Source of the DNA: Bacteroidales bacterium
GTDB lineage: Bacteria > Bacteroidota > Bacteroidia > Bacteroidales > Paludibacteraceae
NCBI GenBank assembly: GCA_900766775.1
Contig: CAAFXN010000080.1
Span: forward strand, 1 to 56,471
DNA length: 56,471 nt
Direction: 5' to 3'
How positions within the stretch are numbered: position 1 is the first letter of the stretch; each line of letters begins with the position of its first letter. This document shows positions 1,761-37,225 of the stretch, one piece after another. The notes beneath the pieces were generated by a model, which saw only the letters and a list, made by a program, of their open reading frames with translations, searched no databases and was not told the DNA's origin. Made by a program: the position numbers and the translations under genes.

Positions 1761-2019
1761 ATCCATTAATTGACGTTAATTATTCGTTAATTTACCAACC
1801 GTGGGCGGGACCCCGCGTATCCAGTGAGGCGTTAGAGAAACATTCTTTCGGCGGCTAAGGTACAAAAAAGAATGATATGCACAAGGATTTGATGGAAAAA
1901 GGTGATAAAATTACACCTTTTAGCAGCGTTTGCGGGTGTAGCATAGCGGTTTTGCGCTTTTAGTGTGTATTTTTTACAGAATATGTCAATTTCTCAACAA
2001 CTGAATCACAGTAGTGTAG

Positions 2020-2027
2020 TACCTTTG
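2020..2027 (+). promoter_or_regulatory. Bacteroidota -7 promoter box (TAccTTTG) for the pectate lyase gene
   Basis: Exact TAnnTTTG match, about 40 nt upstream of the ATG at 2067. Confidence 0.45.
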
Positions 2028-2066
2028 CACCTGATTTCAAGTCATACAATTAAAATCACAATACCT

Positions 2067-4529: not shown

Positions 4530-4555
4530 AGGCTGCCCGAGCATAGTTTAGAATT

Positions 4556-4598
4556 ATGAGCGCATTGGAACTGAGTTTCAGAGCGCTCATATTTTTTT
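4556..4598 (+). terminator. intrinsic terminator after pectate lyase
   Basis: atgagcgc / gcgctcat stem followed by attttttt. Confidence 0.6.
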
Positions 4599-4633
4599 AG
4601 GCAAGGGGATGTTGACTCTGTGTCTCAATCTTG

Positions 4634-4695
4634 CCCCGCCCCCTTACCCCCTCCCCGTCCCGACAGGTCGGGATAAACGAAGCGGGGTGAGGGAG
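4634..4695. repeat. GC-rich palindromic element (CCCGCCCCCTTACCCCCTCCCC family), intergenic copy
   Basis: It shares the head ccccgcccccttaccccctcccc with the copy at 51615-51663 (opposite orientation) and with the maf-internal copy at 42752-42788. It has an internal hairpin gtcccgac/gtcgggat. Confidence 0.6.
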
Positions 4696-4801
4696 TTGTA
4701 GGAAGTCGCCTCGCACACGTATGGGCTCGCACCTACGCTATTCTATATCGCCCCTTCGGGGCTTGTAGTTAGGAAGGATTGTTGGCGGAGGCGGACAGAC
4801 C

Positions 4802-4930
4802 GCAAATCTTAATAATCGCTGTATATTAAAAAATTAGTTGTATCTTTGCAATCGATTTACATCTTTAGGTATGAAGCAAGGTCGAACAATCGTTGGTAGC
4901 GAAAACCTTATTGTACATTTTGTCCCTATA
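4802..4930 (+). repeat. about 128-bp dispersed element carrying a TAtcTTTG promoter box (copy A); candidate sRNA or MITE-like sequence
   Basis: About nine in ten positions match 56342-56471 by eye. It contains aatcttaataatcg and a -7 box at 4841-4848. Confidence 0.6.
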
Positions 4931-4972
4931 TCGATACATCTAAAAACCAGATAGCTCGTACATTTTAAAATG

Positions 4973-7900
4973 TTACTTCGGGTATGTTATTCCCAAGGGC
5001 GTATAACACTGTTCACCACGGATGATAATCAATTGTCCATTACGGAATATCTTGCGTACCACGGTAGTGTTTTCTATCTCGGAAATAGAGGTGGGGGTAG
5101 AAACTATCGTGAAAAAGACTACATAGGTCTGCTGTGTACCGTTTTCAGCCGTTACCAACACATGCGCCTCTCCCGGCAACCCCGTTGCCTGCTCTATGTC
5201 GACAGTAGCCAACGGGTCAGAGGGTTCTGCAGTGAGATACGGGATGAGCGCGGTTCCTTGGGGTAGGGTGACCATGTAAGAAAACTCCTTTGCGTCAAAC
5301 GGCTCAATGGGTGTTCCATTGAAAGCCATACTCATTAGAGATGCATCACTGCTCAGCCCCATTTGGAACTCCACCGTATAAGTCGTTGTGTTGCTTCCGT
5401 CTGCAGATATCACCACCACCGATGCCTGACCTGGGAAAGTGGTCGCTTGTACGATAATGACACTCGCTCCCAAATCCGAAGATATTGCACTGATAGTAGG
5501 AATTGCGGTGGTGGATGATGGCAAAGAAACTTCATATATGAAATGGTCAGGTCGGAAGTTCTCAACACTTATGCCATTGTATGCCAATGCCGACAAAGTA
5601 GCATCCGAAGATAATTTGCGGGTAAACTTGATTGTATAAGTCAATAATGCACCAGTCTTGGCAATAACTACTACCGATGCTTGTCCAGGCAAAACGGTTG
5701 CTTGAATAAGCACTATACGTGATTGCGCATCGTAGGGTGTAGCCGCAATAACAGGACAATCTGTTTGCGTGGCAGGGAGTTCCACTGTATATTCCAGCAC
5801 AGCAGGGTTAAAATCCGGAACGGGAACTCCATCATACGTAATGCTCACGAGCGCTGCGTCGTGGACGAACTCCGCCCACAGGGTACTATCTTCTGTCAGG
5901 GTAATCGTACGGGGGTTCTCGGTGAGTCCGTCTGACCATCGTACAAAAGTATAGTCCGTAGCAGCATTGGCGGTAACGAACACCTCACTACCCAACAGAT
6001 AATCACCATCTCCATCTACAGTACCTCCCTCCGAAGGCGTTGCTAACAATGTCAGCCGACGTATTGCCACGAACTGTGCTTGTATGTTGTGAGAAGCAGC
6101 GACCGTAAGTTGCAACACATTAGAGGAAGCTTGTGCCCCGAGATAGTTCGCACCCTGCTCTACTCCGTCCACAATCCATCCAGCAAAAGTGAAGCCATCG
6201 TCAGCATGGGCCGTGAAACAAAGTTCCTCGCCATAAGGATAGATACCCGTGCTGTTTCCCTCTATCGTACCTCCTTGCGGTGTATCCACCTGCACACGAT
6301 ATTTTTTCTTATCGAACACCGCCACGGCTTTCATATCTCCGAGTGCAGTATAAGAACAAGTTGATACATCTGTGATTTGCTCGTCATTCACACTCCAATA
6401 GCAGAAAAGGAATCCTTCATTTGGAGATGCAGTCATGTTAAATGTCTCGCCATAGGCGATATTCTTCGGCACAACGACGGTTCCTCCATCGGCTGGCAAG
6501 ACCTTTGAAGTTAAAGATATATTACCCTCACGATACATATTCCATCCCTTTGACTTACCGCTCTTCCCTTGGAAATTTTCCATGTCTGTTATATCAGTGG
6601 TCTGAATGGTCAATTGATAATAGCCGTTCCCCGCCAAGGTATAGAGTTTGGATAGATCTATCGTATATGTTCGTTCGTTCTGCGGGGTGATGGTGATGAG
6701 TTGAGCATTGAGCGCCTCACCTTGGCAACTGATGGTGATATCATCGGTGGTGAAAGTAGCAGAGTTGATGGGCTTGTTAAAGACCACAATGAGTTCTGTT
6801 ATAGGGCTTGTTGCAAATCCATTTTCGGGAATGCCGATGATGGTATCTACCGCCAACCATGTATCCGGTGTTGGCATGAAAGTAAGTTGATAGGTCTCTG
6901 CAGAAAGGGTGGCAAAGCGGTCTGCGAAATGGATTCTATTCTCGTAGAGCGGTTGTTTACCATCTCGAAGCGTGCGGTCAGTGAGCCAGAAGTTATCCAA
7001 CGGAATGTTTTCACCATCGCTTTTTCTCACAACAGACAGCAGTGCCGCTTTGCCATAGGTGGGGTCTGCTACGGAGCCGTAGTTCCAACCTGTGGAGGAA
7101 GGAGTAACCAGCAAGGTGTATTCTGTGTTGGATATGCGCGATATCTGTGTGGCTGTGTTAATCGCTACCGACTCTGTTTCTCCATCCGTAGTATATAGCA
7201 TGTCTGGCAAGTCGTCGTCATCGATGATATCATTCGTAAGGAAGCCTAACATATCCCCCACACGCACGGCATGGATAAGTTCACGGATGGTTACCGTATC
7301 AAGCAACGAGAGGTCAGGGTTGCCACAACTGTTCACTTGCGTTGCCTTGACATCATAGTCGGTGAAGTGTCCCAAGAGCGAACTGCGGAACCACCATTGC
7401 GCGTAGGTGGTAGATTGTGCGGGGATATTCCCGAACTCTGTGGTGGTTTGCTTTCCCAGCGCGAGGGTCTTCTCCTGCCCGTTGAGTTGGGTGCTCATAA
7501 TCGCCATATTGAGGAGGAGCCCTTTCTGATTATCCACAATGGAGGGTTGCTCAGTGGTCATCCGTACATTGGTGGCATCTCCGTAGCCTTTGTTATGGAT
7601 GAGCAACGCGAACTGTGCATCAAGAGAAGGTTCTATCTCTTCGGTGAGCGGGTCATCGCCGAGGATATCGCGCTGCATGAAATAGGTGAGTTCGAGGTTG
7701 GGAGCAGGTTTGACAGTAAGCGTAACAGGAAAGAGTTCGCGGGTAACATCCAGCCCTGTGAAGGGATCTGTGTAGGTGAGTGTGCCGCCAAAGGTATAAG
7801 GTGTCTCCACCATCGGTGCCGCATACTTAGTAGGTATGAACTGTATCTTCGCCACGCCAGTTTGTTGTGCGGAGAGCGTCCATCCGGCATCGAATGCGAG

Positions 7901-10900
7901 TTCGCCGTTGAATTGGTCTATGCTTGCGAGGTTGGTTTGGAACTCATGCGCAGTAGCCACTATGCCCATGGGATCTCGAACTTCAAGATTCAAACGGATG
8001 TTCTCCATAGCATCGGTTTCATGTCCATTGAAGACGGTAAGCGTTCCTTCAAATGCCTGCCTTGTGAGTACCATCTGCTGTGAAAATTGCAGGCTGATAG
8101 AGGCACAAACGGCTTGCGATGCCTCTTCCAATCGCTCTTGCAGTTTGGTGGTTTCTGCCTGCCACATTTCTTCCATAGAACCATATCCCATGGCTCGGCA
8201 TTTATCTTCTTGCTCCAGAATGATAGCAGCACAGTCCGCAAGATGGTCCACATTTATGCAATTGGTCAGCCCTACCTGCTGTTCCTGAGGCAAATTGGAG
8301 TTGTTCAAACGTTGGATAAAGAGTTCAAACTGAGCATCGGTGATACCTGCTGGTTTATAGGCGAGGTAATCGTTTGATTGTAATGTAGTTTCTACTGATA
8401 AAGAGATGGCACTGAGCAAGTCATATAGTTCAACCGGAGAGGTGTTTTCCATCCATATAGAATCGCCAAACAGCTCAATATAGTATGCACAGTAAGCAGT
8501 TTGAGCGTCTAACATAATTTCCGCTTTACCTTGGAAATCCTGAATATAACTCGGATAGCCATTGTCTTGGTATGGCGAAGCATATCTTCCTTGCAGTGCT
8601 TGTTTAGCAGACGTGCCTTCTTTCTCACATGGTTGGAGGAAGGAATTGATACAACTGATGACCGAGATTGTAATACCTATGGCAGGGTTGACCCATTTGG
8701 AGAAAAGGCTTGCGAGACATCCTAAACCTGTTAAAGAGCAACTTATTCCGTTTTGCCTATTCCATCCTGTCACGTTTACATTTCTTGCGCAGTCTATAAT
8801 TCCCGGCAGACAGTCGTTATAGCCAGGAATAAACGACAGACCACATTCAAGAATCTTGAGCAAGAACTCATTCTGACAGGGTTCACATCCTTTGTCTTCG
8901 GTAGGAGGTCCTGCAACTATGGTGGCTATTGTACCAAATATACCACTTCCTCCTAATGTCGGAACACTACCCGGCGAAGAAGGATAATAGGGATTCGGTA
9001 TTTCTTCACCATAAGTGGGCGGATATTTTATGATTTCCCAAGTAGTGGAATCTTTGCTATTGCATGCACCCACTTGCATAGCAACATCGTATCGATGCCA
9101 TCGTCTATCGTTACCGCAGTCCCAATAATATAGTGTTCCTACTTGTCCGACACAAGGATCATTATCTATCGGTTTATTGCTCGTGGGGGGGAGTAGTTTC
9201 GTTTTGATGGGAGCAACGGAGGCTTCTTCTTGCGCGGGTTCGTCTATTGCGGTATTCGTAGTATTGGTTACGCGAACAGGTATCTGCACACTCTGCTGCG
9301 GCGCCAATCGGAAAGGTTCATTGTAACTCAATGCCTCAAACTGCAGTACGGAGAAGTCGGAAGGAAGAACGAGCGACACATCTTCGGCAGTGATAAGTCC
9401 TTTATTGGTGAGTACGGCGTAGAAAATCAGCGATTCGCCGTCGCCCAATTCCTTCGCAGGGATGCTGTTTGGCATCGTGAGTTCTACCACAGGTACGGGC
9501 ACATTGGTCTCGTACTGAACAGTGGTTGTGATGTCATACTCATCTTCTATCTCCGTCTCTTCCACTTGAAAATCTACCCGTATTGCTTCGATACTAAGGT
9601 TGATAACCGTCTTCGTCTCTGTCCCCGGGTCTACTAAGATGTTCTTCCGATAGGAGCTATGCCCGTTGGCGGTAACATCGAGCACATAGTAGCCTTCCTG
9701 CAATTCGGTAGTGAAAAGCCCGTTTTCATCGGTTGTACCTTCGGCAATAGTCTTCCCCGTGGTGGGATGACTCACTCGCACGGCGGCTCCCCGCAGGTGG
9801 GGTGCCTCTGCGGTGTAGTAGGTGTTCTCATCGCACACATCCACCACGAGTGTGCCCATTGATTCCGATACGGGCGTGATGGAGAATGGCAACGATAAGC
9901 CGGAGCCATTGGCGCAGTTGATACCAATCGTTCCCGTTACGGGATAGTTGAGCGGCATGTCGTCTGTCGGTGTGAACAGCAGAATGACTTGCGCGGAATC
10001 GGCATATTGCATAGAAGGCATCTCGCGGGGCGTAGCAAGCGACATGAAAGAGGGTAACTCAAGGCTTATCTTGCCCGTTTCTCCCCTGCCAACATTTGTT
10101 AAGATAAACGAGTAAACTCGTTCTTGCCCCTTCACCATAGTAGTGTTGATACGTGCAAGTGAAGCTACGAGTGCACCCCGCGGGTTTTGACAGAAATAAT
10201 ACACGGTGATAGGCAGTTCTACCCCTTCTTCCGTCTGCGCGAGCAGCTCCACTTTGCTCCAATCGTTGCCCTCCGTCGATTGGGTGGGAGTCAGTTGATA
10301 AGTCAATGCCACACTGCTTCCTGCCGGTATCTCGGAAGGTGCTTCAATGTTGAAGGTGCAGTCTTCCGGTTTTGACACTACTTTCACGGCGAGCCCTTTC
10401 AGCGGAACATGGCAGGGGTTTTGTATGCGAATGGAGCCGGTAGCTACATCGCCTAACACCAATTGGTGTGTAATAGCGTTTGTAGAAGTACGTTTCATAC
10501 CATAGACGCTGATGGTAGCCATCGGCTCTCTTTTTCCCTCATTCGGGTAGCATGCGCCGACAGCAAATGTACCAATCTGCCATTCCTTTGGCTGGTAGTT
10601 CATTTGGAAATGCCCACTTTCGTCCGAAGTAACCGTGGTAGCATAGCGATAACCATCGTTGATAGCATATACTTCTATCGTTTGATTTGCCTGTTTCTTT
10701 CCTCCCACCTGCCCCGAAATCAGTACGCTATCGCCCACTTGATAGAGCGCTTTTTCGGTCTGTACACTTAGTTGGAAAGGCGAGATTACATCTATCTTCA
10801 GTACCTGAGAATAGTTGTTGGAATAGGACAGTTCTTTCTGCTCTTTCTTTTCGTTTGCCACTGCATACACCTGATAGGTGCCTATCTTGCTTGGAACAGG

Positions 10901-13213
10901 AGCGGCGTAGGTAAGGGTTGTTTTCTCTGTAGGAGCCAAATCATTGGGCAACGCGATAGTCGCAATAGGAGAATATGCATAGGAAGCATAGACCATTATC
11001 GGCATACCTTGCTGCAAGGTATAACTGCCTGTATTGCTTATTTCTATGTTCAACTGCATCGTATCGCCCACTTCCAGCGTTGTTTGCTCCATAGACAGGC
11101 TCGCCATTGCATCGGGCAGTGTCTGGTCGGATATAGAGAACCACAGATTGGCTTTGGAGAATCCCTCTGCTGTGGCTTGCAAGGCGATAGTTACGTCATC
11201 TCCGTGTAGGGTGTTGTTTTGGGCTTGAATATTGAACACAACGCTCGTCTCACCCGTAGGTATCGTTACTGTCTCGGGGAGGGTTACCACCATGGTGTTA
11301 TCCGCAGACAATGTTACCACGAGCGGTGCGGTGGGTGCTGTATTGCGGCTAAGGGTAACAGACAGGGTCTCTCCCTCGTTGATAACAGCACGATTGGCTT
11401 TCAACGATAGTGTAGGACCATCATTATCGGTGATGGTCAATCGGGCAGTGGCTACGCCCACCGTCTCGGAAGGCTGGACATTGCAACGGCATGCACTGCT
11501 ATACACCGCTGCGGTGATAGTATGGACGCGCTCGCCATCCACTATCGCATTATCAATGGCTCCCAAGCGAAGTGTTGCCTCTTCCACCCCCGCTGGCATT
11601 TCTATGCGTGAAGTGCCGTAATATATCTCGCCTTCTGAATCATCATACAACAGCACTTGGACAGCCCGCTGTATGTTTGTTGTTTTGCGAATAGTAGCCG
11701 TTACGGCGAGTGGACCGTCTGACTCGGAAACTACATCGGGCGCGAGCACCAACTGCAATGCTGGTATGTCGTTATCTACAAGGGTAAACACCTGCTTGGC
11801 TGCCTGATACCCCGTTGCCGAAACGGTGATAGACATCTCCTCGTTGAGGTTGACTGTTTGGTCTTCGATGCCTGTAACTTGTATGGTTGCGGCGGTCTCT
11901 CCTGCCGGTATGAGGACGGTAGCGGGGACGCTGAGGCGCGAGGAGGACGGACGAATGGTCAGGAGAAGGTCGGAAGCCGAGGCACGCTCCAAGGTGATGG
12001 TCGCTGTGGTACTCTCTCCTTCGTTTAACTGCTCCGCATCCATCGCAACCATGATACGCGGATACGTGTCATCATTGAGGATAACTACGCCCTCCACCGT
12101 TGCATAGCCCTGCGTATCGTCCGTGATAGTGAAATGCACCACTGAGTCGGCATCCAGTTGATTGTTCGCTTCCACTTGCAGATAGATATACTTCCCCGAT
12201 TGCCCTTTCTGTATGGTGATGGTCTCGGGGAGCACCACTCGCGCATCCGCATCTTTCGTCAGTCGGAAGGTCTCTGCGGCGGATGTGCTGCCGCTGCGAG
12301 TCAGTTGCAGACGATACGACTGATATGACGCTTCGTCGATGTGTATGCTCGTCGGCGTGATGACCAGTTGTTTTTCGATGGTCAAGGTGCCGGCAGAGAG
12401 TGCCGTGTTGTTTGCCTGCATCCAAGTAGGCTCGCCCGCATTAGCATTGGGCACTATGGTTACGCGCACCTGCGCCTCACCGTCTATACCCACGATAGCG
12501 GGCAAGGTGAGTGTCGCTTGGCGGTTCACCGATGCTCCCGCGTTTAGCACGCCATCATAATAGAGTGTGCCCACGCATTTCTCCGTTCCGTCTGTCCCTA
12601 CGAGAAACAGTCGCTCGCTCCAGCCATCCGTAGTGCCCAATCCACCGATGTTGGCGACGCTCCATTGAATATCCAGTGCTCCATTTGGCGATATGCTCAC
12701 GGTTGACAGTTGCACATTCTGTACCTCCAAGTCAGCACTTTTGATGATAGATATTGCACCGGCGGAATAGTCGCTTGCAAGGTTATCACCTTGGCTATCG
12801 GCTATCACGAGGTTGGTAATCGTCATGTTCAGTACATCTCCTTCCTGCACAGAGGCATCGGTGTACAGTGGGATGGTGAATAACGTACCCTTCCTGCCGA
12901 TAATCGGTTTGTTTTCTGCAGAGAACACCATACAAAGATAGGTGCTGTCCGTCATGTTCTTCACCTTGAGGCTATGCCCGTCGGCTCGCTCGGTGAGCGT
13001 TGCTTCACTGGACGTGAGATACAAGCCCGATGGGAGGGTAATGGTAAATTGGAGCGCAACAATATCCGCACTGTTCTCCATCTCCACCGGCATCTGTATC
13101 GTATTGCCCGATGCTACCGTCAGATCCGGAATACGTATCGCATTATTCTGCCCTTGTGCAGCGCTCGCTGCCACCCATAATGCCGCTAACAGGATATATA
13201 ATTTTGTTTTCAT
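4973..13213 (-). CDS. giant secreted multidomain surface protein (2746 aa), cohesin-like N-terminus
   Basis: Signal peptide MKTKLYILLAALWVAASAAQG. A cohesin-like module follows (IRIPDLTVASGNTIQMPVEMENSADIVALQFTITLPSGL...). Then come CARDB-like modules, four Calx-beta-like modules ending in xDND(I/G)P, and a CarboxypepD_reg-like module (RGAAVRVSHPTTGKTIAEGTTDENGLF). A Cys-rich central region, InlB-B-repeat-like modules and three cadherin-like beta-sandwich repeats follow. The tail is RKIFRNGQLIIIRGEQCYTPLGITYPK. Confidence 0.9.
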   Translation of the reverse strand: MKTKLYILLAALWVAASAAQGQNNAIRIPDLTVASGNTIQMPVEMENSADIVALQFTITLPSGLYLTSSEATLTERADGHSLKVKNMTDSTYLCMVFSAENKPIIGRKGTLFTIPLYTDASVQEGDVLNMTITNLVIADSQGDNLASDYSAGAISIIKSADLEVQNVQLSTVSISPNGALDIQWSVANIGGLGTTDGWSERLFLVGTDGTEKCVGTLYYDGVLNAGASVNRQATLTLPAIVGIDGEAQVRVTIVPNANAGEPTWMQANNTALSAGTLTIEKQLVITPTSIHIDEASYQSYRLQLTRSGSTSAAETFRLTKDADARVVLPETITIQKGQSGKYIYLQVEANNQLDADSVVHFTITDDTQGYATVEGVVILNDDTYPRIMVAMDAEQLNEGESTTATITLERASASDLLLTIRPSSSRLSVPATVLIPAGETAATIQVTGIEDQTVNLNEEMSITVSATGYQAAKQVFTLVDNDIPALQLVLAPDVVSESDGPLAVTATIRKTTNIQRAVQVLLYDDSEGEIYYGTSRIEMPAGVEEATLRLGAIDNAIVDGERVHTITAAVYSSACRCNVQPSETVGVATARLTITDNDGPTLSLKANRAVINEGETLSVTLSRNTAPTAPLVVTLSADNTMVVTLPETVTIPTGETSVVFNIQAQNNTLHGDDVTIALQATAEGFSKANLWFSISDQTLPDAMASLSMEQTTLEVGDTMQLNIEISNTGSYTLQQGMPIMVYASYAYSPIATIALPNDLAPTEKTTLTYAAPVPSKIGTYQVYAVANEKKEQKELSYSNNYSQVLKIDVISPFQLSVQTEKALYQVGDSVLISGQVGGKKQANQTIEVYAINDGYRYATTVTSDESGHFQMNYQPKEWQIGTFAVGACYPNEGKREPMATISVYGMKRTSTNAITHQLVLGDVATGSIRIQNPCHVPLKGLAVKVVSKPEDCTFNIEAPSEIPAGSSVALTYQLTPTQSTEGNDWSKVELLAQTEEGVELPITVYYFCQNPRGALVASLARINTTMVKGQERVYSFILTNVGRGETGKISLELPSFMSLATPREMPSMQYADSAQVILLFTPTDDMPLNYPVTGTIGINCANGSGLSLPFSITPVSESMGTLVVDVCDENTYYTAEAPHLRGAAVRVSHPTTGKTIAEGTTDENGLFTTELQEGYYVLDVTANGHSSYRKNILVDPGTETKTVINLSIEAIRVDFQVEETEIEDEYDITTTVQYETNVPVPVVELTMPNSIPAKELGDGESLIFYAVLTNKGLITAEDVSLVLPSDFSVLQFEALSYNEPFRLAPQQSVQIPVRVTNTTNTAIDEPAQEEASVAPIKTKLLPPTSNKPIDNDPCVGQVGTLYYWDCGNDRRWHRYDVAMQVGACNSKDSTTWEIIKYPPTYGEEIPNPYYPSSPGSVPTLGGSGIFGTIATIVAGPPTEDKGCEPCQNEFLLKILECGLSFIPGYNDCLPGIIDCARNVNVTGWNRQNGISCSLTGLGCLASLFSKWVNPAIGITISVISCINSFLQPCEKEGTSAKQALQGRYASPYQDNGYPSYIQDFQGKAEIMLDAQTAYCAYYIELFGDSIWMENTSPVELYDLLSAISLSVETTLQSNDYLAYKPAGITDAQFELFIQRLNNSNLPQEQQVGLTNCINVDHLADCAAIILEQEDKCRAMGYGSMEEMWQAETTKLQERLEEASQAVCASISLQFSQQMVLTRQAFEGTLTVFNGHETDAMENIRLNLEVRDPMGIVATAHEFQTNLASIDQFNGELAFDAGWTLSAQQTGVAKIQFIPTKYAAPMVETPYTFGGTLTYTDPFTGLDVTRELFPVTLTVKPAPNLELTYFMQRDILGDDPLTEEIEPSLDAQFALLIHNKGYGDATNVRMTTEQPSIVDNQKGLLLNMAIMSTQLNGQEKTLALGKQTTTEFGNIPAQSTTYAQWWFRSSLLGHFTDYDVKATQVNSCGNPDLSLLDTVTIRELIHAVRVGDMLGFLTNDIIDDDDLPDMLYTTDGETESVAINTATQISRISNTEYTLLVTPSSTGWNYGSVADPTYGKAALLSVVRKSDGENIPLDNFWLTDRTLRDGKQPLYENRIHFADRFATLSAETYQLTFMPTPDTWLAVDTIIGIPENGFATSPITELIVVFNKPINSATFTTDDITISCQGEALNAQLITITPQNERTYTIDLSKLYTLAGNGYYQLTIQTTDITDMENFQGKSGKSKGWNMYREGNISLTSKVLPADGGTVVVPKNIAYGETFNMTASPNEGFLFCYWSVNDEQITDVSTCSYTALGDMKAVAVFDKKKYRVQVDTPQGGTIEGNSTGIYPYGEELCFTAHADDGFTFAGWIVDGVEQGANYLGAQASSNVLQLTVAASHNIQAQFVAIRRLTLLATPSEGGTVDGDGDYLLGSEVFVTANAATDYTFVRWSDGLTENPRTITLTEDSTLWAEFVHDAALVSITYDGVPVPDFNPAVLEYTVELPATQTDCPVIAATPYDAQSRIVLIQATVLPGQASVVVIAKTGALLTYTIKFTRKLSSDATLSALAYNGISVENFRPDHFIYEVSLPSSTTAIPTISAISSDLGASVIIVQATTFPGQASVVVISADGSNTTTYTVEFQMGLSSDASLMSMAFNGTPIEPFDAKEFSYMVTLPQGTALIPYLTAEPSDPLATVDIEQATGLPGEAHVLVTAENGTQQTYVVFFTIVSTPTSISEIENTTVVRKIFRNGQLIIIRGEQCYTPLGITYPK

Positions 13214-13237
13214 AATGAATGTAGGGTTAACATGTTT

Positions 13238-16200
13238 TTACTTAACAATCACTTTCCGTACTGCTCCGTTGCTGACTACAATATTTATTCCTTGCAGCAA
13301 ACCGTTCTGTTTGCGCCCAAGCACATCATACAGTGCGCTATCTCCCATCGTCTGTACCTCATCCGCCGCGGTGGTTATTTCGCTCACCACTTGTATGGAG
13401 ATAGGTTGTGCCTCGGGGTCAGACAGCGAAATGGCTTGTACCCATACTGCTTTGTTCTGCACGCTGCCCAATACAATATCATCGTTGGCAGGCAGTGTAG
13501 CGCCGCTCAGAGAGTATGCCACCACATTCCCGTTGCTTATCGTTTGCGTCAGTCCTTGTGCGGCAATATCCCAATCCACACCTGCTGCTTTGATACATAG
13601 CGCACCTACAGGGATGGGGGAACGGAGCACCACTTGCTCGTTGCGTACATACAATACCGCCGTATTGGGTGCATCGCCCATCGCCTCTGCCTTGACGCGA
13701 GCAGGCTTTGGACTTACCGAGGCAGTGCTGTCCGACAGCAGCATGTTTACCAAACAAATCACATCCTGCACATTGATAATACTATCGGCATACACATCCG
13801 CCGCAGTGGAGTTGAAGAAAGTACCATATTCCTCAAAAATGAACAGCACCAACGCTTGCAAATCCGTGGCATCTACACCTCTTCCGAAATTTACATCCCC
13901 CATATCAAATGTCCATGCCATGCGAAAAGAGGTGTTATTAGAATCCCCCCCGTTCCTATCCACATTGAGGGTGTCTCCCGAGTTGCCGTAGAAAGCAACA
14001 GTCGAGTACCAGTAGTATAGGATGTTATCTTCTGATATTTCCATTCTTATGCCTCCATATGGCTGTATTTTTTCAGAATACAGCGACAGCGATACATTAT
14101 CCGAATAGGAATTGTTGCTCCCGTCATACCGCACAATGGTAGGTAGCATCTGTAGCAATTCTTGCGCTGACACGGAAGATATATCCACCTGATATACCGT
14201 ATCTAACTGCTGATGACCGATATCTATGTACCCTAACTTCCTCGGCAACACCGGCGACAGCTCCATAAAGCGGTTGTTGTTCGCGTATAATGTAGTGAGG
14301 GATGGCAGGCTGTCCACTATCGGCGTGATATTACCCTCGAAACTATTGGAAGAGATATTGAGCGTCTGCAATTTCTTAAACCGCAATGCCCTCGGCACTT
14401 CGCCGCTCAACCCCATGTTCGACAAATCCAATTCAATAATACGCCCTTGTTTGCAGGTTATGCGGTCAAATTGCAACCCATCCTCTCTGCCCACGGAGAA
14501 GTCCCAATTCAGCACATCCTCTCCCATACCTCCGGCTCGCAATTCGGCATACAACTCCTGCAAAATCTGCCAGTCCTCCTCTGCGATAGGATATTCCTGC
14601 AACCACACATTCGCCCCCACCAACTCCGGCACACCGCCGTAGTTCTTCAGTTTGCCTATCGCCCACACGCTGTCGCCTACTTCCACATATCCACTTGTCA
14701 TATACCCCTGATAAACAGTCAGCATCTCCTCATTGCAGCCTATGGAAAATGTCTGCTCCGTGTACCAACCACCTGTCGAAGTTACCTCGCTCACTACCCC
14801 CCGCAGGCTATACCATTCGAGGAGTACCTCATTGCTGTCAGCCCTATTGCACAGTGTGATTGCCTCACACGGACTTACCTCTATCGTGTCTATGTGCACA
14901 GCCGCTGCCTGCAAAACCTCCACGCTCCCGTTCTTTATCTCCGGCGAGTGCTCGTCTTTTGACGAAGAATAATAGTGGAACAAATTGCCCGAAAGCATAA
15001 TCTTATCGCCCACATTCAGCGGCATATCACCCGGCAGGAATGCCCAATAGCCTTGGAAAGTCCTTTCCCCCGAGCCACGCACGTCATCCATATAGAATGT
15101 CTGCTGCCCGCGTGATACCACACCATCCGTCTCCGTTATATAGCCCATCACCGTTACACTTGCGCCAGAGGTATTTTCCGTGAGTGAAAGAGCCTGCGTG
15201 CGAGCCTCCGCACAACTAATGTATTTCAACTCGCCCACTACTTTTATGTCATACACCTGTATCTCCGTCCCCGCCGTTGCATAACCGAAGTCGAACACTA
15301 AGATACCGTTAGTACCGTAGTTATACTGCCCCGTCAGGATAAACGTCCGCTCTTCGTTGGCGGTCAGCGCATTGTCATTCACCTCGTATAGGATTCCTTG
15401 GTCAAATGCTTTGATGGTAATATTGTTCACATCTTTGTTCGCTCTCATCCGCACCCGAATAGCCACCTCGGTGTAGTCTTTCAAATACTGTAAGTTGCTG
15501 TGCAACCACGTTTGCGCCTGCCACCTCGATTGCTTATCTTCGGCGATAGACACGCGCAGCGTATCGTTGCTCCATACGGCATAACTCTTGTATTCTTGTT
15601 CCCAATTTCCGTCAAAGAACATCGTGGTGCACGTGTCCACCACCATCACATTCTCCCCCTCGGGCATATAGGTGCACTCCGTCCATCTGCCCTCCGAATA
15701 GTCGAACACCAGCGTGTCCACATCGGTCAATACGATGTTCGTGTCCATCACCTGCCATACGCTGCCGTTGTACATCGCTATCTGGTTGCTCCATGTCGTG
15801 TCCTTCACCTCGCGGAAACGCATCTTATCCCCTAACGCTGCCAGAAAATCCAACTCGTAGCAACCTAAACTACCATTATACACCATCGGTGTCTTCGTCC
15901 ATACATTAAACGTACCTGACACGGCGGGCGCATACTCCGGATGCTCCTCGCAAGCGGGCGCATACAGGCTGACGTGATAGGTAATCATCGTGTCCATCTC
16001 ACATAGGTTGCGATGCTCTTTCCAGTATGCCGAAACCAGCACCACAGGCGTTGCCTTGCTGTAGTTCACCAGGTCTGACTCGGTATCCACCCCTTGGATG
16101 ATATTCACCGAACCGCTCAGCAATGTCCACGATGCCACATCGCCTGCCTGATTCTCCCACGAGAACGAACCATCCTTGCGCAGTTGTACCGGCTTACCTT

Positions 16201-17704
16201 CTATCACCGCCGAGTCGTCATTCACTGCCACTACCCACCAGCCTTCGTAACCCTCTACCGGTTGGAACAATACACACTCTTCCTTGCTCGTTGCCCATTG
16301 GTTATACGTGCCCGTAAACACAATATCATTGCATACTTCCCCTTCAAACTTTATGCACACACACAACTGACCTTCTTCGTAATACTGCGACAGCACTTCA
16401 TTCGTAGGATACTCCAGCGAGACATCACCGCCTATAATCGACTCTAACGTTACCCAAGTGCTCGTGCTGTTGTTATAGCACATCCCCCGTTCAAAAGTCA
16501 AATCTTTGGTCTGCAGCCCATTACCCCCATTGTTAAAAATACAATTCGCGTATTTCCCATGCTCGCACGAATACATCCACACACCATCATACCCCGTTTC
16601 CTCCATCGCTACCCCGGGCCATGCAGCGTTGTCCACTGCCGAAGTTCCGACAGGGCTCCAAGCGTAGCAATGCATATTACTCCATCCCACAGCATCATAG
16701 CAATATACTGTATCGAAATCAGGTACCACCGGCACAATAGGCGTATCCGGGATTGTCGGCTCCTGATAAGGTAGTACCGAAATCCGAGCAATACGATAAC
16801 CACCTGCCGTTTCCATTAGGCAGCAATGCGTACAATCTTGCTTAACCACATACCGAAGATGTTCCCAAGCCGCATAATCATCGCTCACCGAAGTACCGGA
16901 TGACGCTGCTACTTGATGTTCATCCTCCAAGCCATCCACCGGAATCAGATTGCATGAATCAGCAAACGATACACTCATTATCGGAAGCGTCGTACCCTTT
17001 GCACTCAATACATATTCAATGGTATCACCTCCCGCCACATTGTCAATAGAGATATACGTACACTTCCCATTGGTACGCATGTATGCGTCTCTAAACGAGA
17101 AGAAACTTGCTTTTGTTGTCGAGTTTGCATACCAAAAATGTAAATCCGGCATTGATAAAAAAGATACACCCATCGTATCACCAATACCAGTATATGACAC
17201 CTCAACATAAGTAGCAGTCGCTACCTCAGCGGGTCCGCTTACCGAGATATCCGATTGTTCTACTGCGTACAAGTTGTATGTTCGTTTTCTATCGCTTGTC
17301 TCCTCGCCACCAACAGGTTCGTCACTATCGCCTTCATTTCCGACATCCGTCAAGACGACCGTTACCTGCGTGATACGAGTCTGCTTGCTCACCGTGGCAA
17401 CCCACATAGTATCTACGGGTTCTACATTAGGAAATGTATCTTTTGTGGTTGTAGCATACAAGAAAGACACACGCTCAATAGGGCAATTGGCAGATATCAG
17501 CAATGTGCCGCCGATATATATCCGCAACGATTCACTCGCTACATATCCCGAGTTCGTAAACAATGTTACACCCTCTTTTGTCAACTCTACCGGACTGCCC
17601 GTTCCCGACGTGCCTCCACTCAGTTCCGAATGCAGAATCGTTACGGTCTTAGCAGGAGCAAGCACAGAAAAAAACAAGAAAATAAACAAGAAAAACTTTT
17701 TCAT
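13238..17704 (-). CDS. large secreted protein (1488 aa) with CBM-like, LRR and dockerin-like modules and canonical T9SS C-terminal domain
   Basis: Signal peptide MKKFFLFIFLFFSVLAPA. Starch-binding-like segment HCYAWSPVGTSAVDNAAWPGVAM. LRRs LDLSNMGLSGEVPRAL..LQTLNISSNSFEGNI. Dockerin-like pair GDVNFGRGVDATDLQALVLFIF / AADVYADSIINVQDVICLVNMLL (about 13727-13903). C-terminus ...LYDVLGRKQNGLLQGINIVVSNGAVRKVIVK. Confidence 0.9.
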   Translation of the reverse strand: MKKFFLFIFLFFSVLAPAKTVTILHSELSGGTSGTGSPVELTKEGVTLFTNSGYVASESLRIYIGGTLLISANCPIERVSFLYATTTKDTFPNVEPVDTMWVATVSKQTRITQVTVVLTDVGNEGDSDEPVGGEETSDRKRTYNLYAVEQSDISVSGPAEVATATYVEVSYTGIGDTMGVSFLSMPDLHFWYANSTTKASFFSFRDAYMRTNGKCTYISIDNVAGGDTIEYVLSAKGTTLPIMSVSFADSCNLIPVDGLEDEHQVAASSGTSVSDDYAAWEHLRYVVKQDCTHCCLMETAGGYRIARISVLPYQEPTIPDTPIVPVVPDFDTVYCYDAVGWSNMHCYAWSPVGTSAVDNAAWPGVAMEETGYDGVWMYSCEHGKYANCIFNNGGNGLQTKDLTFERGMCYNNSTSTWVTLESIIGGDVSLEYPTNEVLSQYYEEGQLCVCIKFEGEVCNDIVFTGTYNQWATSKEECVLFQPVEGYEGWWVVAVNDDSAVIEGKPVQLRKDGSFSWENQAGDVASWTLLSGSVNIIQGVDTESDLVNYSKATPVVLVSAYWKEHRNLCEMDTMITYHVSLYAPACEEHPEYAPAVSGTFNVWTKTPMVYNGSLGCYELDFLAALGDKMRFREVKDTTWSNQIAMYNGSVWQVMDTNIVLTDVDTLVFDYSEGRWTECTYMPEGENVMVVDTCTTMFFDGNWEQEYKSYAVWSNDTLRVSIAEDKQSRWQAQTWLHSNLQYLKDYTEVAIRVRMRANKDVNNITIKAFDQGILYEVNDNALTANEERTFILTGQYNYGTNGILVFDFGYATAGTEIQVYDIKVVGELKYISCAEARTQALSLTENTSGASVTVMGYITETDGVVSRGQQTFYMDDVRGSGERTFQGYWAFLPGDMPLNVGDKIMLSGNLFHYYSSSKDEHSPEIKNGSVEVLQAAAVHIDTIEVSPCEAITLCNRADSNEVLLEWYSLRGVVSEVTSTGGWYTEQTFSIGCNEEMLTVYQGYMTSGYVEVGDSVWAIGKLKNYGGVPELVGANVWLQEYPIAEEDWQILQELYAELRAGGMGEDVLNWDFSVGREDGLQFDRITCKQGRIIELDLSNMGLSGEVPRALRFKKLQTLNISSNSFEGNITPIVDSLPSLTTLYANNNRFMELSPVLPRKLGYIDIGHQQLDTVYQVDISSVSAQELLQMLPTIVRYDGSNNSYSDNVSLSLYSEKIQPYGGIRMEISEDNILYYWYSTVAFYGNSGDTLNVDRNGGDSNNTSFRMAWTFDMGDVNFGRGVDATDLQALVLFIFEEYGTFFNSTAADVYADSIINVQDVICLVNMLLSDSTASVSPKPARVKAEAMGDAPNTAVLYVRNEQVVLRSPIPVGALCIKAAGVDWDIAAQGLTQTISNGNVVAYSLSGATLPANDDIVLGSVQNKAVWVQAISLSDPEAQPISIQVVSEITTAADEVQTMGDSALYDVLGRKQNGLLQGINIVVSNGAVRKVIVK

Positions 17705-17803
17705 AAAATATCAGACTTAACGCATTGAATACATCATAAATGGGTTATCCACCTCATATGTATCCTACCCGCCTGCGGGTACAGAGATACAAACTTCCGA
17801 GCG

Positions 17804-17811
17804 CAAAGGTA
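17804..17811 (-). promoter_or_regulatory. -7 promoter box (TAccTTTG) for the 1488-aa/2746-aa gene pair
   Basis: Exact TAnnTTTG on the minus strand, about 100 nt upstream of the ATG at 17704. Confidence 0.4.
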
Positions 17812-17894
17812 CAAAAAAAATTACACCTACGCAAACTTTTTTATAAAAACATTGCCTTTTTATTATTCATTAAAAGCAGAGAATCGAGAAGAGA

Positions 17895-18023
17895 AATCTT
17901 AACAATCGTACTTCTTCGTTGCGGGGTTGGGTTGCGAACGACCCGCGAAAGACCCGCGGGAGACCCGCGAAAAAGACACTACATCGTTGCGGCGGGAGAA
18001 CGGCGGGAAAATCTTAACAATCG
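17895..18023. repeat. composite about 125-bp element: aatcttaaYaatcg direct repeats flanking (GACCCGCGnnn)x3
   Basis: 14-bp boxes at 17895-17908 and 18010-18023, with an 11-bp x3 array at 17940-17972. The same architecture occurs at 56241-56358. Confidence 0.7.
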
Positions 18024-18036
18024 GACTGCATCTTAT

Positions 18037-18147
18037 TTAATTAAGAATTAAGAATTAAGAATTAAGAAGGCGTATGCTCTTTTTTAATTAAGAATTAAGA
18101 GGGCGCATGCTCTAATTAAGAATTAAGAATTAGGATTTAGGATTTTT
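18037..18147. repeat. AATTAAG/AATTAGG heptad arrays
   Basis: Three blocks of tandem 7-mers separated by two copies of agaRggcgYatgctct. The last block encodes the C-terminal KILNPNS and the stop codon of the 196-aa ORF. Confidence 0.8.
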
Positions 18148-18713
18148 TTCAGGCGGTGGTGCTTGCGGCAGGCGTAGGCGGCGGCGAGGAGGAACAGGGG
18201 CAGCAGGGGTTCGCCTACGGGTAGCGGGGGCTCATCAACGATACCTCCCGGGGTACCGGGCGAGCGTTGCGGCATGGTCGGCGCAGCCGCAGCAGAGGGC
18301 GAATAGACCGTGCCGTCCGCCATGAGCATGGGAGCCGCCGAGAGTTTGGAGAAGCCGACAGTGCCCATGGTCGGCGGGAGCATGTTGTCCGAACGGGGTG
18401 CCGTGGTGCTCACTGCCATGGCAGCGAACACCTCCGCCATGCGTCGGTCGTCGGACAGGCTGCTGCCCGTCTGCATGAGGCGTCGGGAGTAGGTGTCTTG
18501 CGCGTCGCGGTCGGACCCCGATAAAGCGGGATGCAAGCAACCGTAGGACATCGGCGCTACGGAGGTGAAAGGCAGATAGGCGTCCTTCGTCGAGGGCTCG
18601 AACCCCGATAAAGCGGGATGCAAGCAGCGGAAAGAGAACATATCTGCCTGCGCCGCACTGCCGTGAATAAACAGGAGCGCAAGGATGAGGATATAGGTGT
18701 GTTTGTGTTTCAT
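18123..18713 (-). CDS. small secreted Ala/Pro/Ser-rich protein (196 aa) with sorting-signal-like C-terminus
   Basis: Starts 21 nt after the stop of the upstream giant gene. Signal peptide MKHKHTYILILALLFIHGSAAQA. The C-terminus is PLPVGEP, then the hydrophobic LLPLFLLAAAYAC, then the basic RKHHRLKK. The region is GC-rich with ORFs open in several frames, so coding status is not certain. Confidence 0.55.
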   Translation of the reverse strand: MKHKHTYILILALLFIHGSAAQADMFSFRCLHPALSGFEPSTKDAYLPFTSVAPMSYGCLHPALSGSDRDAQDTYSRRLMQTGSSLSDDRRMAEVFAAMAVSTTAPRSDNMLPPTMGTVGFSKLSAAPMLMADGTVYSPSAAAAPTMPQRSPGTPGGIVDEPPLPVGEPLLPLFLLAAAYACRKHHRLKKILNPNS

Positions 18714-18734
18714 GGTGTCGGTCGTTCGGGCGGG

Positions 18735-21700: not shown

Positions 21701-24700
21701 AAGTCCATTGGGCATAGCCGTTGGCGGTAACGAGTGCGTTGTAGGTGCCCGCCGTGGTTACGGTGAGTGTGGCAGCGGTGGCGCCTTTGACAGCCGCACC
21801 GTTCTTGTACCATTGGTACGTCGGTGTGTTAGCGTCGGTGTTGATAGTCAGCACGATAGACTGTTGGCAGTCCACGGAGGTGTTGCCCGAGATGGTGGCG
21901 GAGAAAGCGGTGCTGCCGCTCGGGACTTGGATAGTGAGGGTGTAGGACGCCGCCCCTTCGCAGTAGGTAATCTCGTCCACGGTACCGCCCTCGGTGTATG
22001 CCGTTATCTTGGTCTCGCCCACAGCAAGAGGGGTAACTGCTCCCGTCTCGCTGTCCACGGTAGCCACCTTCGGGTTGGAGGAGGAGTAGGACACCGGCAG
22101 AGAGGCGCTTTTGGTGAGCGTAGGCAGACCGCTGAGGTCGCCTTTGGTATAGTCCGCCGTATGGGATATAGCGCTGAACGCCAAGCCCGCAGACGTGCAG
22201 AGCGGCGCTACCTCCACGCAGCAACTCGTGATGTAGCGGGTGCCGCTGGCTCTACCATAAACCGTTCCATTTATCTCAATGTGGCGGACTATGGTTGCGC
22301 GGGTGATGAGTTTGTTGTCGTTCTCGCGTGTGAACTCCTTCGGGGTCGTGCCGATAGAAATACTCTCCGGCGTCAGCTCGCCCCAATAGAAAGCAAAGGC
22401 TTGGTTGTCTTTGGAACCGGATATCGTGAATGTAACACGCTTGATGTAGTAGCCATCCGACGCCTCGATGATTAGAGGAGAACCTGTGCCTTTTAGATTG
22501 TATCGCTCATTGTTTGCATCCCACATATTATTGGCGGTTACAGTAAAGAAGCCGTAGTCTGTGTCTCCGTTTGCCAAGCACGCCTCATAGACCAAGGCTT
22601 TGACGGTTACGGTTGCCACCGAGGAGGAGATTGTGCCGCCACACTCGCCTGCGCCTACACAATAATAATAGTACTTCGTATCCACCTCGTCGCTCAGCGG
22701 AATGCTGACGCTCAGTTGGTCGTTCGTCTCGCCCGTGAGGGCTACCGCGCCCGTCTTGTCCGAGGCAGTGCATTGGTACCACTGGTAGCGGATGGCGCCG
22801 CTCATCTTCACCGAGAGCACCCCCGTCTGCCCTTGCACGATGGCATACGAGGAAGCAAGGTCGGTGGTTATTTTCGCCATCGCGCGCACCGTAACCGCAG
22901 CGGGGGTGGAGGAATAGGCATTACCGTCCACGGTGGCGACCACGGTGTAGGAGCCGCTCTCGGTAACCTTTATCTCAGTCTTGCCCGCATAGTCGGTCAG
23001 TTCCGCGCCGTCCTTGAACCACGCGAGGGTGGCGCCGCCGGCGATATGGCTTGCCGTGAGGGTGGCACCGCCGTCTTTCTCGCAAGCGCCGTTGTTGGTT
23101 ACCGTCAGGATGGGGACGTTCTGAGCCACCGCCAAAAGGGTGTACGTCAGCACGTTAGAGGGTGCTGCCGATTGGTGGCAGCCGTCTATATTCGTGTTGG
23201 TGGCATAGCAGCGGAAGCGGTACTCGCCCGCCTTGTCGCTCTCGGAGGGCGACCAAGTGTGAACACCCGTAACGGTGGAGAGGGCTTGCCAAGTATCGCC
23301 TCCGTCGGTGGAGTATTGCCACAGGTTGGTGTTGCTGCTGGAGGTCATCTTCACCACATCGCCTTGCGCCACGTCGCCCTGCGCTACGTCAGCGGTGAGG
23401 GTCGGTGTGGCGGGGGCGGTCAGCAGACGGAGTTGCGCACTTGCCTTCGCATGGGTAGAGGTCTTGCCGCTCGCAGATACCGTGGCTCGCACATCGTAGG
23501 TGCCGCCCGCGGTAGTACGGTAGGTGGAGGTGAAGGTGGTGCCATCGGCGCGCGTGTAGGTTGTTTTCTGCAAGGTGTCGGTGGGGTTAGATTGGCTCAC
23601 CCATGAGACGAGGCACTGCTCATCCGCTTCCATATCCTCCACCGTGATGGTAGCCGTCCAGCCTGCCCAATCGCCGAAGTCAGCGTCATCGGCGCAATAG
23701 GTCGTGCGCGTGCCGTCGTTGAAACCCGACGTGATAGCCACCGCAGGGGTGGAGCAACGCTCTCCCGCCTCTACGTCTATCAGCAGTACACCGTATATCT
23801 CGCCGTTTGTTTTGATATCCACACCGCCGGCGAACGGGCCCGAGACCTCTTGCGCAATGAAACCGCTACTAAACTCTTTCGCTACCCCTGCGATGGTGAG
23901 CGTACGGGCTTTGTCGCACCTACCGTAGAAGGCTATCTTGGTAGCGGTGAGGCTGCCGAGTTGCAAGGTGTAGGTGCCATTACTGAATTTCAATGCCTGC
24001 ACCGTAGTGCTCGAAGTCTTTGTGTTGCTCCAGTCTTGCTCGGTGCCCAAGTGGTCTAAGTGGGTCTCTGCATAGTAGTAGACCTTAGTAACAGGATAAG
24101 TGTTCAGCGAGATGTCCTCAGAGGTTGCATAGGTCGTCCCGTCGTACTTGATAACCCCCACCTTCGCCCCTGCCAGATTAGCGGCTAACGCCCCCGCAGA
24201 GACCCCCGCGTTGGCTATCAGGTATTGGGTAGTCGCTTTGAGTGTGGGATAGGTTACGGATATTTGGGGCTCGTCCGGATTCGTTGTATTTAAGGTAAAG
24301 AGGTAAGTGCCTTCGCGACCAGTGGTAAAGAGCACATTGTCGCTTGCGGTGGAACTCAGTATGCAGTCGTTGAAAGTAGCGGTGTAGTTGCCGCCGCTCG
24401 ACAGACCGTACCACTTGTCGCCGTACTTGACCTTGAACTTATACTGCGTACTCGCAGGTAAGGAGATGGAATAGGTCGCGATACCTGTGGTCTCGATCTC
24501 CACAAAGTTATGGTCTATTGCCCAGCCTGCGGCATCGTCGCTCTCGAATGAGCCTCGCAGTGTCCAATACGGGGTTTCTTCCCATACGGCGGTGAGGATA
24601 ATATCGGCGCTGCCCATGGTGTATGTCGCGCATGCGGCATAGGTATTCTTCCCGTCGTTCCAGCCGGCGAAGGTGTAGCCCGTTTTCGTGATATCGTCTG

Positions 24701-37054: not shown

Positions 37055-37059
37055 ATTAT

Positions 37060-37128
37060 GTCATTTTATGTTTGTCACTTTGTGTTCGTCATTGCATGTT
37101 GGCATTTCATGTTCGTCATTGCATGTTA
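37060..37128. repeat. 14-bp array x5 abutting the LRR gene start codon
   Basis: Units gtcattttatgttt, gtcactttgtgttc, gtcattgcatgttg, gcatttcatgttc and gtcattgcatgtta. Confidence 0.8.
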
Positions 37129-37154
37129 GTCCTATAATGGCGATATAACTGCCC

Positions 37155-37223: not shown

Positions 37224-37225
37224 AA

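Follow-up and report, generated by a model that had tools for sequence, protein, structure and literature searches.

A complete 56,471-bp contig of a Paludibacteraceae metagenome-assembled genome (hereafter, the window) was analyzed, and two adjacent genes on its minus strand, G2 and G1, encoding proteins of 1488 and 2746 amino acids (aa), were found to constitute a conserved two-gene module, inherited as a unit, for secreted binding proteins that are not enzymes, in which G1 bears a genuine cohesin and G2 a true but divergent, type-I-like dockerin. The pair probably represents a two-gene operon for a two-piece stalk-and-head adhesin, whose export would probably proceed through the type IX secretion system (T9SS). 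The original prediction had regarded G2 and G1 as parts of one surface assembly together with the two genes upstream, G4 (2494 aa) and G3 (196 aa). The four minus-strand open reading frames (ORFs) G4, G3, G2, and G1, each furnished with a signal peptide, proved correct in their coordinates, in the gaps of 21 nt (G4–G3) and 24 nt (G2–G1), and in their sum of 6,924 aa, in which G4 is counted from the ATG at 26219; its ORF is open further upstream, to a GTG at 26336. G2 and G1 share a reading frame, with one stop codon and eight codons between them (window 13214-13240), and are laid out as follows.

13238..17704, minus strand: G2, 1488 aa; signal peptide, CBM26 head, unassigned modules, leucine-rich repeat (LRR), dockerin, C-terminal domain, and short tail
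13214..13237, minus strand: G2–G1 gap, 24 nt
4973..13213, minus strand: G1, 2746 aa; signal peptide, N-terminal cohesin, long array of beta-sandwich modules, and short C-terminal tail

The cohesin–dockerin pair and its conservation in Bacteroidales

A single cohesin and a single dockerin occur in the window, at the following positions.

12734..13144, minus strand: cohesin module of G1, aa 24-160 (PF00963, family profile, AlphaFold2, Foldseek)
13721..13921, minus strand: dockerin-like module of G2, aa 1262-1328, with the EF-hand-like segments DVNFGRGVDATD and DVYADSIINVQD (PF00404, PDB matches)

In the whole-protein Pfam scan of G1 (E<=0.01), a cohesin was not listed, and a single-sequence search of the PDB with the module returned a chance match only. 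The isolated segment of aa 23-170 matched PF00963 with 27.6 bits (cut-off 24.1; E 3.9e-6), covering profile positions 4-139 of 139, and a profile built from 32 N-terminal modules of the family retrieved cohesins from the PDB, namely 5n5p_A (E 6.4e-5), 2xdh, 3ul4, and 6kgc. The AlphaFold2 model obtained with the 32-module alignment reached a predicted local distance difference test (pLDDT) score of 94.4 and a predicted template modeling (pTM) score of 0.85, and displayed the nine-stranded beta-sandwich (jelly-roll) fold by which cohesins are defined. When this model was compared with the PDB by Foldseek, the top 50 matches were all cohesins with template modeling (TM) scores of 0.6-0.8, the best being 6kgf_C (E 4e-10, TM 0.77/0.79). 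Furthermore, a HMMER search with the G1 cohesin collected 2,796 cluster representatives at E<=1e-3. The cohesin that had been proposed to follow the signal peptide of G1 directly is hence real.

Dockerins are characterized by two tandem segments of ~22 residues, each comprising a 12-residue calcium-binding loop (D-x-[DN]-x-[DN]-...-D) followed by a helix, and two such segments were found at the correct spacing in G2. The PF00404 score (cut-off 22.9) rose as flanking sequence was trimmed, from 16.6 bits for the complete protein through 21.5 bits for 105 aa to 23.7 bits for 67 aa, the last match extending over profile positions 2-57 of 57, and the best PDB profile matches of the segment were dockerins. 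Among 62 orthologous segments, 42 matched PF00404 at E<=0.01 (best 1.8e-9), and the profile of these 62 segments again ranked dockerins first in the PDB, with 4fl4_A (E 3.8e-4) followed by 5nrm_B, 2mte_A, 1daq, 4uyp_B, and 1ohz_B. Both calcium loops were canonical in 19 of 61 orthologous dockerins. In addition, the second dockerin segment (INVQDV) and its flanks were among the best conserved parts of the G2 homologues, the heads of which vary freely. The EF-hand pair noted earlier in the gene upstream of G1 thus corresponds to a real module with a borderline Pfam score, and its placement between the LRR (~aa 1093-1160) and the C-terminal domain (aa 1353-1488) was likewise confirmed.

To define the distribution of the pair, a one-genome-per-species collection was scanned with the G1 core, which yielded 234 places, 80 of which were analyzed with hidden Markov models (HMMs) built from the families described here. 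These 80 loci belonged to Prevotella, Paraprevotella, Muribaculaceae, Bacteroidaceae, Paludibacteraceae, Parabacteroides, Dysgonomonadaceae, and Xylanibacter rodentium. A giant ORF was present in 76 of them, with a cohesin in 74 and a directly adjacent upstream gene in 73. In every locus having both an N-terminal cohesin and available upstream sequence (67/67, spanning Prevotella, Paraprevotella, Muribaculaceae, Bacteroidaceae, and Paludibacteraceae), the protein encoded upstream had a dockerin located 157-221 aa from its C-terminal end. The six loci lacking such a dockerin were exactly those in which the cohesin is displaced to aa 231-317 behind InlB-type repeats, and thus every N-terminal-cohesin giant with available upstream sequence has its dockerin partner. 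The intergenic gap had a median of 12 nt and was 50 nt or less in 57 of 61 loci. On all contigs carrying distant G1 homologues, a gene of 870-1094 aa with the same LRR-dockerin-tail C-terminal half ends 12-19 nt before the giant gene.

Co-variation of the modules was then assessed from pairwise distances among 61 loci, the partial correlations being controlled for the G1 core.

Cohesin versus dockerin: correlation 0.80, partial 0.64
Cohesin versus adjacent G2 region (LRR side): correlation 0.82, partial 0.64
Cohesin versus next 400 aa of G1: correlation 0.69, partial 0.31
Cohesin versus G1 core: correlation 0.70

The cohesin subtypes follow the dockerin subtypes more closely than they follow the rest of their own protein: the bootstrapped difference in partial correlation (dockerin minus own protein) was 0.32 (range 0.14-0.51), and the adjusted Rand index for cluster concordance was 0.42-0.70 for cohesin and dockerin versus 0.02-0.55 for the cohesin and its own protein. 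In a single genome holding two pairs, the two were of divergent subtypes (30% and 42% identity). Such co-variation fits co-evolution of contacting modules, and equally a recombination block across the gene boundary.

Most cohesin relatives retrieved in the HMMER search (P0017-P0165, e.g., P0017, P0018, and P0025) contained 2-14 tandem cohesin-like modules, many of them with T9SS-type tails, and 18 cluster representatives combined cohesins with a dockerin. These proteins, from Bacteroidales and Draconibacterium, are annotated only as 'MBG domain-containing' or 'choice-of-anchor D' and look like scaffoldins outside Firmicutes. At the pair loci themselves, two G1-type giants end in a dockerin in place of the T9SS-type tail (L021, Xylanibacter rodentium, 1836-8861; L025, 4634-11971), some loci (L040, L073, L078, and L082) have extra small dockerin and/or cohesin genes just downstream, and eight upstream proteins carry a cohesin of their own. 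The dockerin-ended giants and extra small genes give hints of longer assembly chains in certain species.

Considering these relatives, the two modules might both be functional without being mutual partners, each joining a wider network such as one built on multi-cohesin scaffoldin-like proteins, with G2 and G1 neighboring as co-regulated adhesins. Cohesin arrays of 3-14 modules in other Bacteroidota proteins, the representatives with both module types, and the supernumerary modules at some of the pair loci speak for such a network. Nevertheless, we regard it as unlikely, given the strict linkage with its fixed geometry and tiny gaps, the presence of just one cohesin and one dockerin in the window, and a cohesin subtype that is nearer to the dockerin subtype than to its own protein. 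It is more improbable still that the modules are structural relics, an immunoglobulin (Ig)-like cap and a calcium-binding EF-hand pair, on two independent adhesins that never touch. While the degenerate calcium loops of the window copy and its dockerin score at the Pfam threshold would suit such relics, the conservation around INVQDV, the fixed positions of both modules across the families, and the absence of the dockerin partner where the cohesin is displaced all argue against them.

Proposed stalk, head, and secretion tails

The G1 family comprises proteins of ~2,300-3,100 aa aligning over almost their full length (32-43% identity over about 2500 aa, 16 members), which public records name hypothetical, 'InlB B-repeat-containing', or 'T9SS type A sorting domain-containing'. 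Pfam searches on pieces of G1 returned only binding or structural modules, i.e., CARDB, CarboxypepD_reg, LapA/DUF5006, three InlB B-repeats, and a cadherin-like sandwich. The corresponding regions of both proteins are given below.

5849..6496, minus strand: three InlB B-repeat (Flg_new_2) modules of G1 (PF18998, E 3.6e-25)
6464..8113, minus strand: most conserved G1 core, aa 1700-2250, all-beta rod (column conservation 0.66-0.78 over aa 1700-2100)
8114..9166, minus strand: Cys-rich and helical insert of G1, aa 1350-1700 (poorly conserved columns, ~10 conserved cysteines, no Pfam match)
4976..5062, minus strand: short C-terminal tail of G1 (VVRKIFRNGQLIIIRGEQCYTPLGITYPK), at the position of T9SS-type tails in orthologues; no library match
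16496..16708, minus strand: CBM26 of G2, aa 333-403 (PF16738, E 3e-14 to 3e-15, 53-57 bits, cut-off 28.1)
14225..14428, minus strand: LRR block of G2, ~aa 1093-1160 (LRR_4, E 2.7e-9; LRR_1)
13241..13648, minus strand: C-terminal domain (~95 aa) and short T9SS-like tail of G2, aa 1353-1488, conserved in the family alignment

The core of G1 (aa 1700-2250) had neither a Pfam match nor a PDB sequence match by profile; its AlphaFold2 model (pLDDT 86.8) showed beta strands throughout, and the only resemblance detected by Foldseek was to tandem Ig-like arrays of a generic kind (e.g., pilins, integrin legs, and MG domains; TM 0.1-0.2). The weak matches of G1 to the alpha-2-macroglobulin domains MG2 and bMG3 (E 0.01) were insufficient to place it in that family, and the idea of the hydrophobic Cys-rich insert as a membrane-active region was set aside owing to its poor conservation. 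No enzymatic or toxin-like domain was detected in G1 by Pfam on pieces, by the core profile against the PDB, or by the fold search.

In G2, CBM26 is a starch/alpha-glucan-binding module by family, for which binding is predicted, and is followed by a weak CBM53 match (E 0.02); close homologues are found in the databases under the name 'MAG: starch-binding protein [Paludibacteraceae bacterium]'. The LRR was present in 28 of 33 full-length G2 homologues, and the N-terminal heads differed, consisting of CBM26 (3/33), PKD, F5/8-C, BspA-type LRR, MBG, or CARDB modules. Pfam revealed no catalytic family in G1, G2, or the 33 homologues, in accordance with the earlier statement that no catalytic motif is recognizable. 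The modules listed at that time were also recovered (CBM26, LRR, InlB-B/Listeria-Bacteroides repeats, Big_2, and cadherin-like), except for the Calx-beta-like ones, in place of which LapA/DUF5006 matches were obtained.

As for the secretion tails, the sorting-domain model TIGR04183 was matched by 21 of 69 C-termini in the G1 family and by 10 of 62 in the G2 family, and hhalign showed the two sets of tails to be homologous (96.7%, E 3e-10). Within the window, TIGR04183 matched G4 (25.6 bits, cut-off 23) and an S8 peptidase (30.6 bits). No gene of the T9SS machinery occurs within the window; from these two significant matches, the organism probably has a T9SS. Since part of the family tails match the model and the two sets are homologous while the tails of G1 and G2 in the window match nothing, we infer T9SS export of both as a reasonable reading of the family tails and not as a result. 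The secretion tails that had been ascribed to all three large proteins therefore hold for G4, and for G1 and G2 are T9SS-like only by family homology.

The tail motif of G1, KIFRNGQLIIIRGEQCYTPLG, is common to three other window proteins. This ~27-aa end motif, K-[VI]-x-x-[DN]-G-x-L-x-I-x-R-x-G-x-x-[YF]-x-x-x-G, without a match in Pfam or NCBIfam, terminates four secreted proteins at the positions below.

4976-5062, minus strand: G1
4446-4526, plus strand: pectate lyase
33419-33499, minus strand: 1212-aa LRR protein
40025-40105, minus strand: 698-aa protein without an assigned function

When ~1,350 ORFs from other Bacteroidales loci were searched with a regular expression for the motif of G1, it did not turn up outside this species. 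It may serve as a lineage-specific sorting or anchoring signal in place of the usual T9SS tail.

Given that the cohesin and the dockerin are genuine and belong to a conserved, co-inherited, non-enzymatic module, a self-assembling surface adhesin is the best reading of G2 and G1. G1 would be the stalk of ~2,700 aa, consisting almost entirely of Ig-like beta-sandwiches, with its single cohesin at the very N-terminal end and a short T9SS-type tail at the other; G2 would supply a variable ligand-binding head, in this case the putatively starch/alpha-glucan-binding CBM26, behind which come the invariant LRR, the type-I-like dockerin, a small beta domain, and a tail like that of G1. The signal peptides would take both proteins across the inner membrane, and both would then cross the outer membrane, probably via the T9SS. 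If the C-terminal end of G1 tethers it to the cell surface, the cohesin would be exposed at the distal tip, where the dockerin of G2 would plug in one-to-one and mount the LRR and the head on the stalk. The outcome would be a two-piece adhesin whose head is exchangeable in evolution and whose connector is retained.

Several observations weigh against this adhesin. The window dockerin is borderline by Pfam, its score ranging by context from 16.6 to 23.7 bits against the cut-off of 22.9, and one canonical calcium ligand is missing in each loop, with Gly at position 5 of loop 1 (DVNFGRGVDATD) and Tyr at position 3 of loop 2 (DVYADSIINVQD); neither loop is canonical in 21 of 61 family dockerins. 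The existence of multi-cohesin relatives implies that other partners are possible. Because the cohesin and the C-terminal region of G2 lie adjacent to each other (~0.7-1.2 kb apart), a recombination block spanning the gene boundary could yield the same co-variation without contact. Finally, the G1 and G2 tails of the window match no Pfam or NCBIfam sorting-domain model, and an anchoring-type tail occurs on both proteins, so that the tails do not single out the anchored partner.

A strain-variable cassette beside an independent gene pair

Comparison with sister strains revealed that G2 and G1 reside on a strain-variable cassette flanked by short repeats, as delineated below together with the promoter-like element of G2 and the neighboring genes.

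4605..17893, minus strand: cassette with G2 and G1, promoter region, and 3' flank; 13,289 bp, strain-variable
17894..18023, minus strand: repeat element A, left cassette boundary, bounded by the 15-mer CGATTGTTAAGATTT
4605..4818, minus strand: divergent repeat element B, right cassette boundary, starting with CGATTATTAAGATTT
17804..17811, minus strand: TACCTTTG, Bacteroidota -7-like box 5' of G2 (motif occurrence only)
18123..18713, minus strand: G3, 196 aa
18735..26219, minus strand: G4, 2494 aa, T9SS type A cargo

In two independent assemblies of sister strains (contigs L088 and L089, 94-98% nucleotide identity), BLASTN showed the position corresponding to window 17894 joined directly to that of 4604. 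These contigs carry G4 and G3, a short repeat element, and then the pectate lyase flank, the G2–G1 block being precisely missing; in a pair-carrying relative, the contigs break at the cassette junction. The repeat element is ~130 nt long, delimited by the direct 15-mer CGATTRTTAAGATTT, which has five matches in the window versus zero expected, and its core is GC-rich and hairpin-like (TTTTTCGCGGGTCTCCCGCGGGTC). A further full copy is located at 56240-56358. No integrase or transposase was found inside the cassette, only the short flanking repeats. TTCTTAA tandem repeats fill the spacer after G3 (18040-18130), which is wholly different in L088 (9167-9519).

The two gene pairs are separated by 419 nt, and each is preceded by one TACCTTTG, at 17811 on the G2 side and at 26506 upstream of G4, in agreement with the TAnnTTTG box previously assigned to each. 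The GC content is 0.59-0.61 in G4 (window 18001-24000) versus 0.47-0.51 in G1 and G2 and ~0.52 in the window, and the GC skew of G2 is strongly negative (-0.22); such breaks in composition are compatible with the two pairs having separate origins. Neither G4 nor G3 contains a cohesin or a dockerin. In other genera (L003, L005, and L007), they are absent beside the G2–G1 pair, whose neighbors there are unrelated, contrary to the proposed co-conservation of four genes. G4 and G3 are thus an independent neighboring pair outside the module, and the locus consists of two unrelated units. G3, for which no family match was obtained and which was seen in this species only, always after G4, has two copies of CLHPALSG and a C-terminus made up of VGEP, a hydrophobic helix, and RKHHRLKK, resembling a PEP-CTERM-type sorting signal.

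Accordingly, the assembly of all four proteins into one surface scaffold is contradicted by the present data and appears highly improbable. The genes are co-directional and adjacent, all encode signal peptides, and G4, a T9SS type A cargo, contains binding-type repeats, as such a scaffold would have it; however, the lack of both modules in G4 and G3, the unrelated neighbors of orthologous pairs, the sister strains that keep G4 and G3 without G2 and G1, the intervening gap with its own box, and the GC difference all oppose it. What stands of the single assembly is G2 and G1 as a candidate adhesin.

The surroundings of the locus are ordinary chromosome with several further secreted proteins, comprising genes for a pectate lyase, an M20 peptidase, a second LRR protein, an S8 peptidase, Maf, UbiA, a GH13 amylase, ackA-pta, OmpA, tRNA-Met, FeoB, and RsmF. 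Rfam and tRNA scans of the window gave tRNA-Met at 50902 only. A second same-strand cluster of secreted proteins occupies window 33416-42118 (minus strand) and encodes the 1212-aa LRR protein, the S8 subtilase with a T9SS type A domain, and the 698-aa protein without a family match. The pectate lyase (1965-4529) directly adjoins the locus and has no dockerin, by which the claim that the locus is devoid of SusC/D genes, enzymes, and regulators had to be amended in its enzyme part; the GH13 alpha-amylase is encoded at 44084-45793. A cellulosome- or amylosome-like complex, in which a multi-cohesin scaffoldin gathers dockerin-bearing enzymes, is scarcely credible for G1 despite the CBM26 on the dockerin protein and these two enzymes in the window, as G1 has a single cohesin and a plain beta-rod core, the only dockerin in the window is that of G2, no window enzyme bears one, and no catalytic family occurs in G1, G2, or the G2 homologues.

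Relation to known cohesin–dockerin systems and surface adhesins

Cohesin–dockerin connectors are regarded as a hallmark of the cellulosomes of Firmicutes, and Bacteroidales are usually said to lack them. Bacteroidetes genomes have been stated to be without cohesins and dockerins (PMC5831590), and, at standard thresholds, cohesins were detected only in Firmicutes (PMC9177762); dockerins were noted in rumen Prevotella and Bacteroides by a survey (PMC6487960). Our literature search found no description of a G2–G1 cohesin/dockerin operon.

Tentatively, we propose that Bacteroidota possess a widespread T9SS-coupled cohesin–dockerin assembly system, which might have been overlooked since whole-protein Pfam scans miss such divergent modules. 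It could range from the operon of a one-to-one stalk and an exchangeable head, at the 234 places in gut and rumen Bacteroidales, to scaffoldin-like proteins that have T9SS tails and as many as 14 cohesins, and the pair in the window would be a strain-variable cassette by which surface-binding specificity, here possibly for starch, is gained, lost, or swapped. For its part, conservation of a cohesin/dockerin operon across many gut and rumen Bacteroidales would provide a new way of surface building for dominant gut bacteria, a mechanism for the modular swap of adhesion specificities (starch, glycans, host), a function for a protein family of ~2,700 aa now called hypothetical or InlB B-repeat, and orthogonal, naturally co-evolved connector pairs for protein engineering.

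Compared with the clostridial and ruminococcal type I pairs (PDB 1OHZ, 2CCL, 6KGF, and 5N5P), the G1 cohesin has the same nine-strand beta-sandwich (TM 0.7-0.8), and the G2 dockerin has the same duplicated EF-hand-plus-helix layout, likewise near the C-terminus of its carrier. In contrast to those pairs, G2 and G1 are obligate adjacent genes, their modules share 10-20% sequence identity with the type I ones, and the calcium ligands are partly lost in the window copy. The host belongs to Bacteroidales, and G1 and G2 have T9SS-type tails, whereas clostridial and ruminococcal cellulosomes employ SLH or sortase anchors. Unlike a cellulosomal multi-cohesin scaffoldin, G1 has one cohesin on a non-enzymatic stalk of 2,700 aa, and its predicted partner G2 is without an enzyme.

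Sas6 of Ruminococcus bromii is a further protein in which CBM26 is combined with a connector of this kind. Together with Sas20, it represents the amylosome starch-adherence proteins, in which, as in G2, a non-catalytic CBM26 is joined to cohesin/dockerin connectors for surface display in a gut anaerobe (PMC9112005, PMC4611034). Unlike G2 and G1, Sas6 and Sas20 are Firmicutes proteins and belong to an amylase complex of several enzymes; in the present case, no amylase has a dockerin, and CBM26 is one alternative head among many in the G2 family.

As far as the survey of Peer et al. (2009) is relayed in PMC6487960, cohesins and dockerins act as general protein connectors outside plant cell-wall degradation. 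The non-cellulosomal cohesin of Archaeoglobus fulgidus (2XDH) and the cohesin-like module of Clostridium perfringens (2JH2) were both among the Foldseek matches of the G1 cohesin. These non-cellulosomal cases differ from the present pair in being scattered modules or toxin-complex connectors, with no T9SS-type tails and not arranged as a conserved stalk-plus-head operon.

With respect to surface proteins of Bacteroidota, SprB, RemA, and BspA of Tannerella consist of very long Ig-like arrays or LRR blocks whose export relies on a C-terminal sorting domain and which are displayed on the outer membrane, each as a single polypeptide. In the G2–G1 module, unlike these proteins, head and stalk are encoded by two genes, and the cohesin–dockerin plug apparently unites them once they have been exported.

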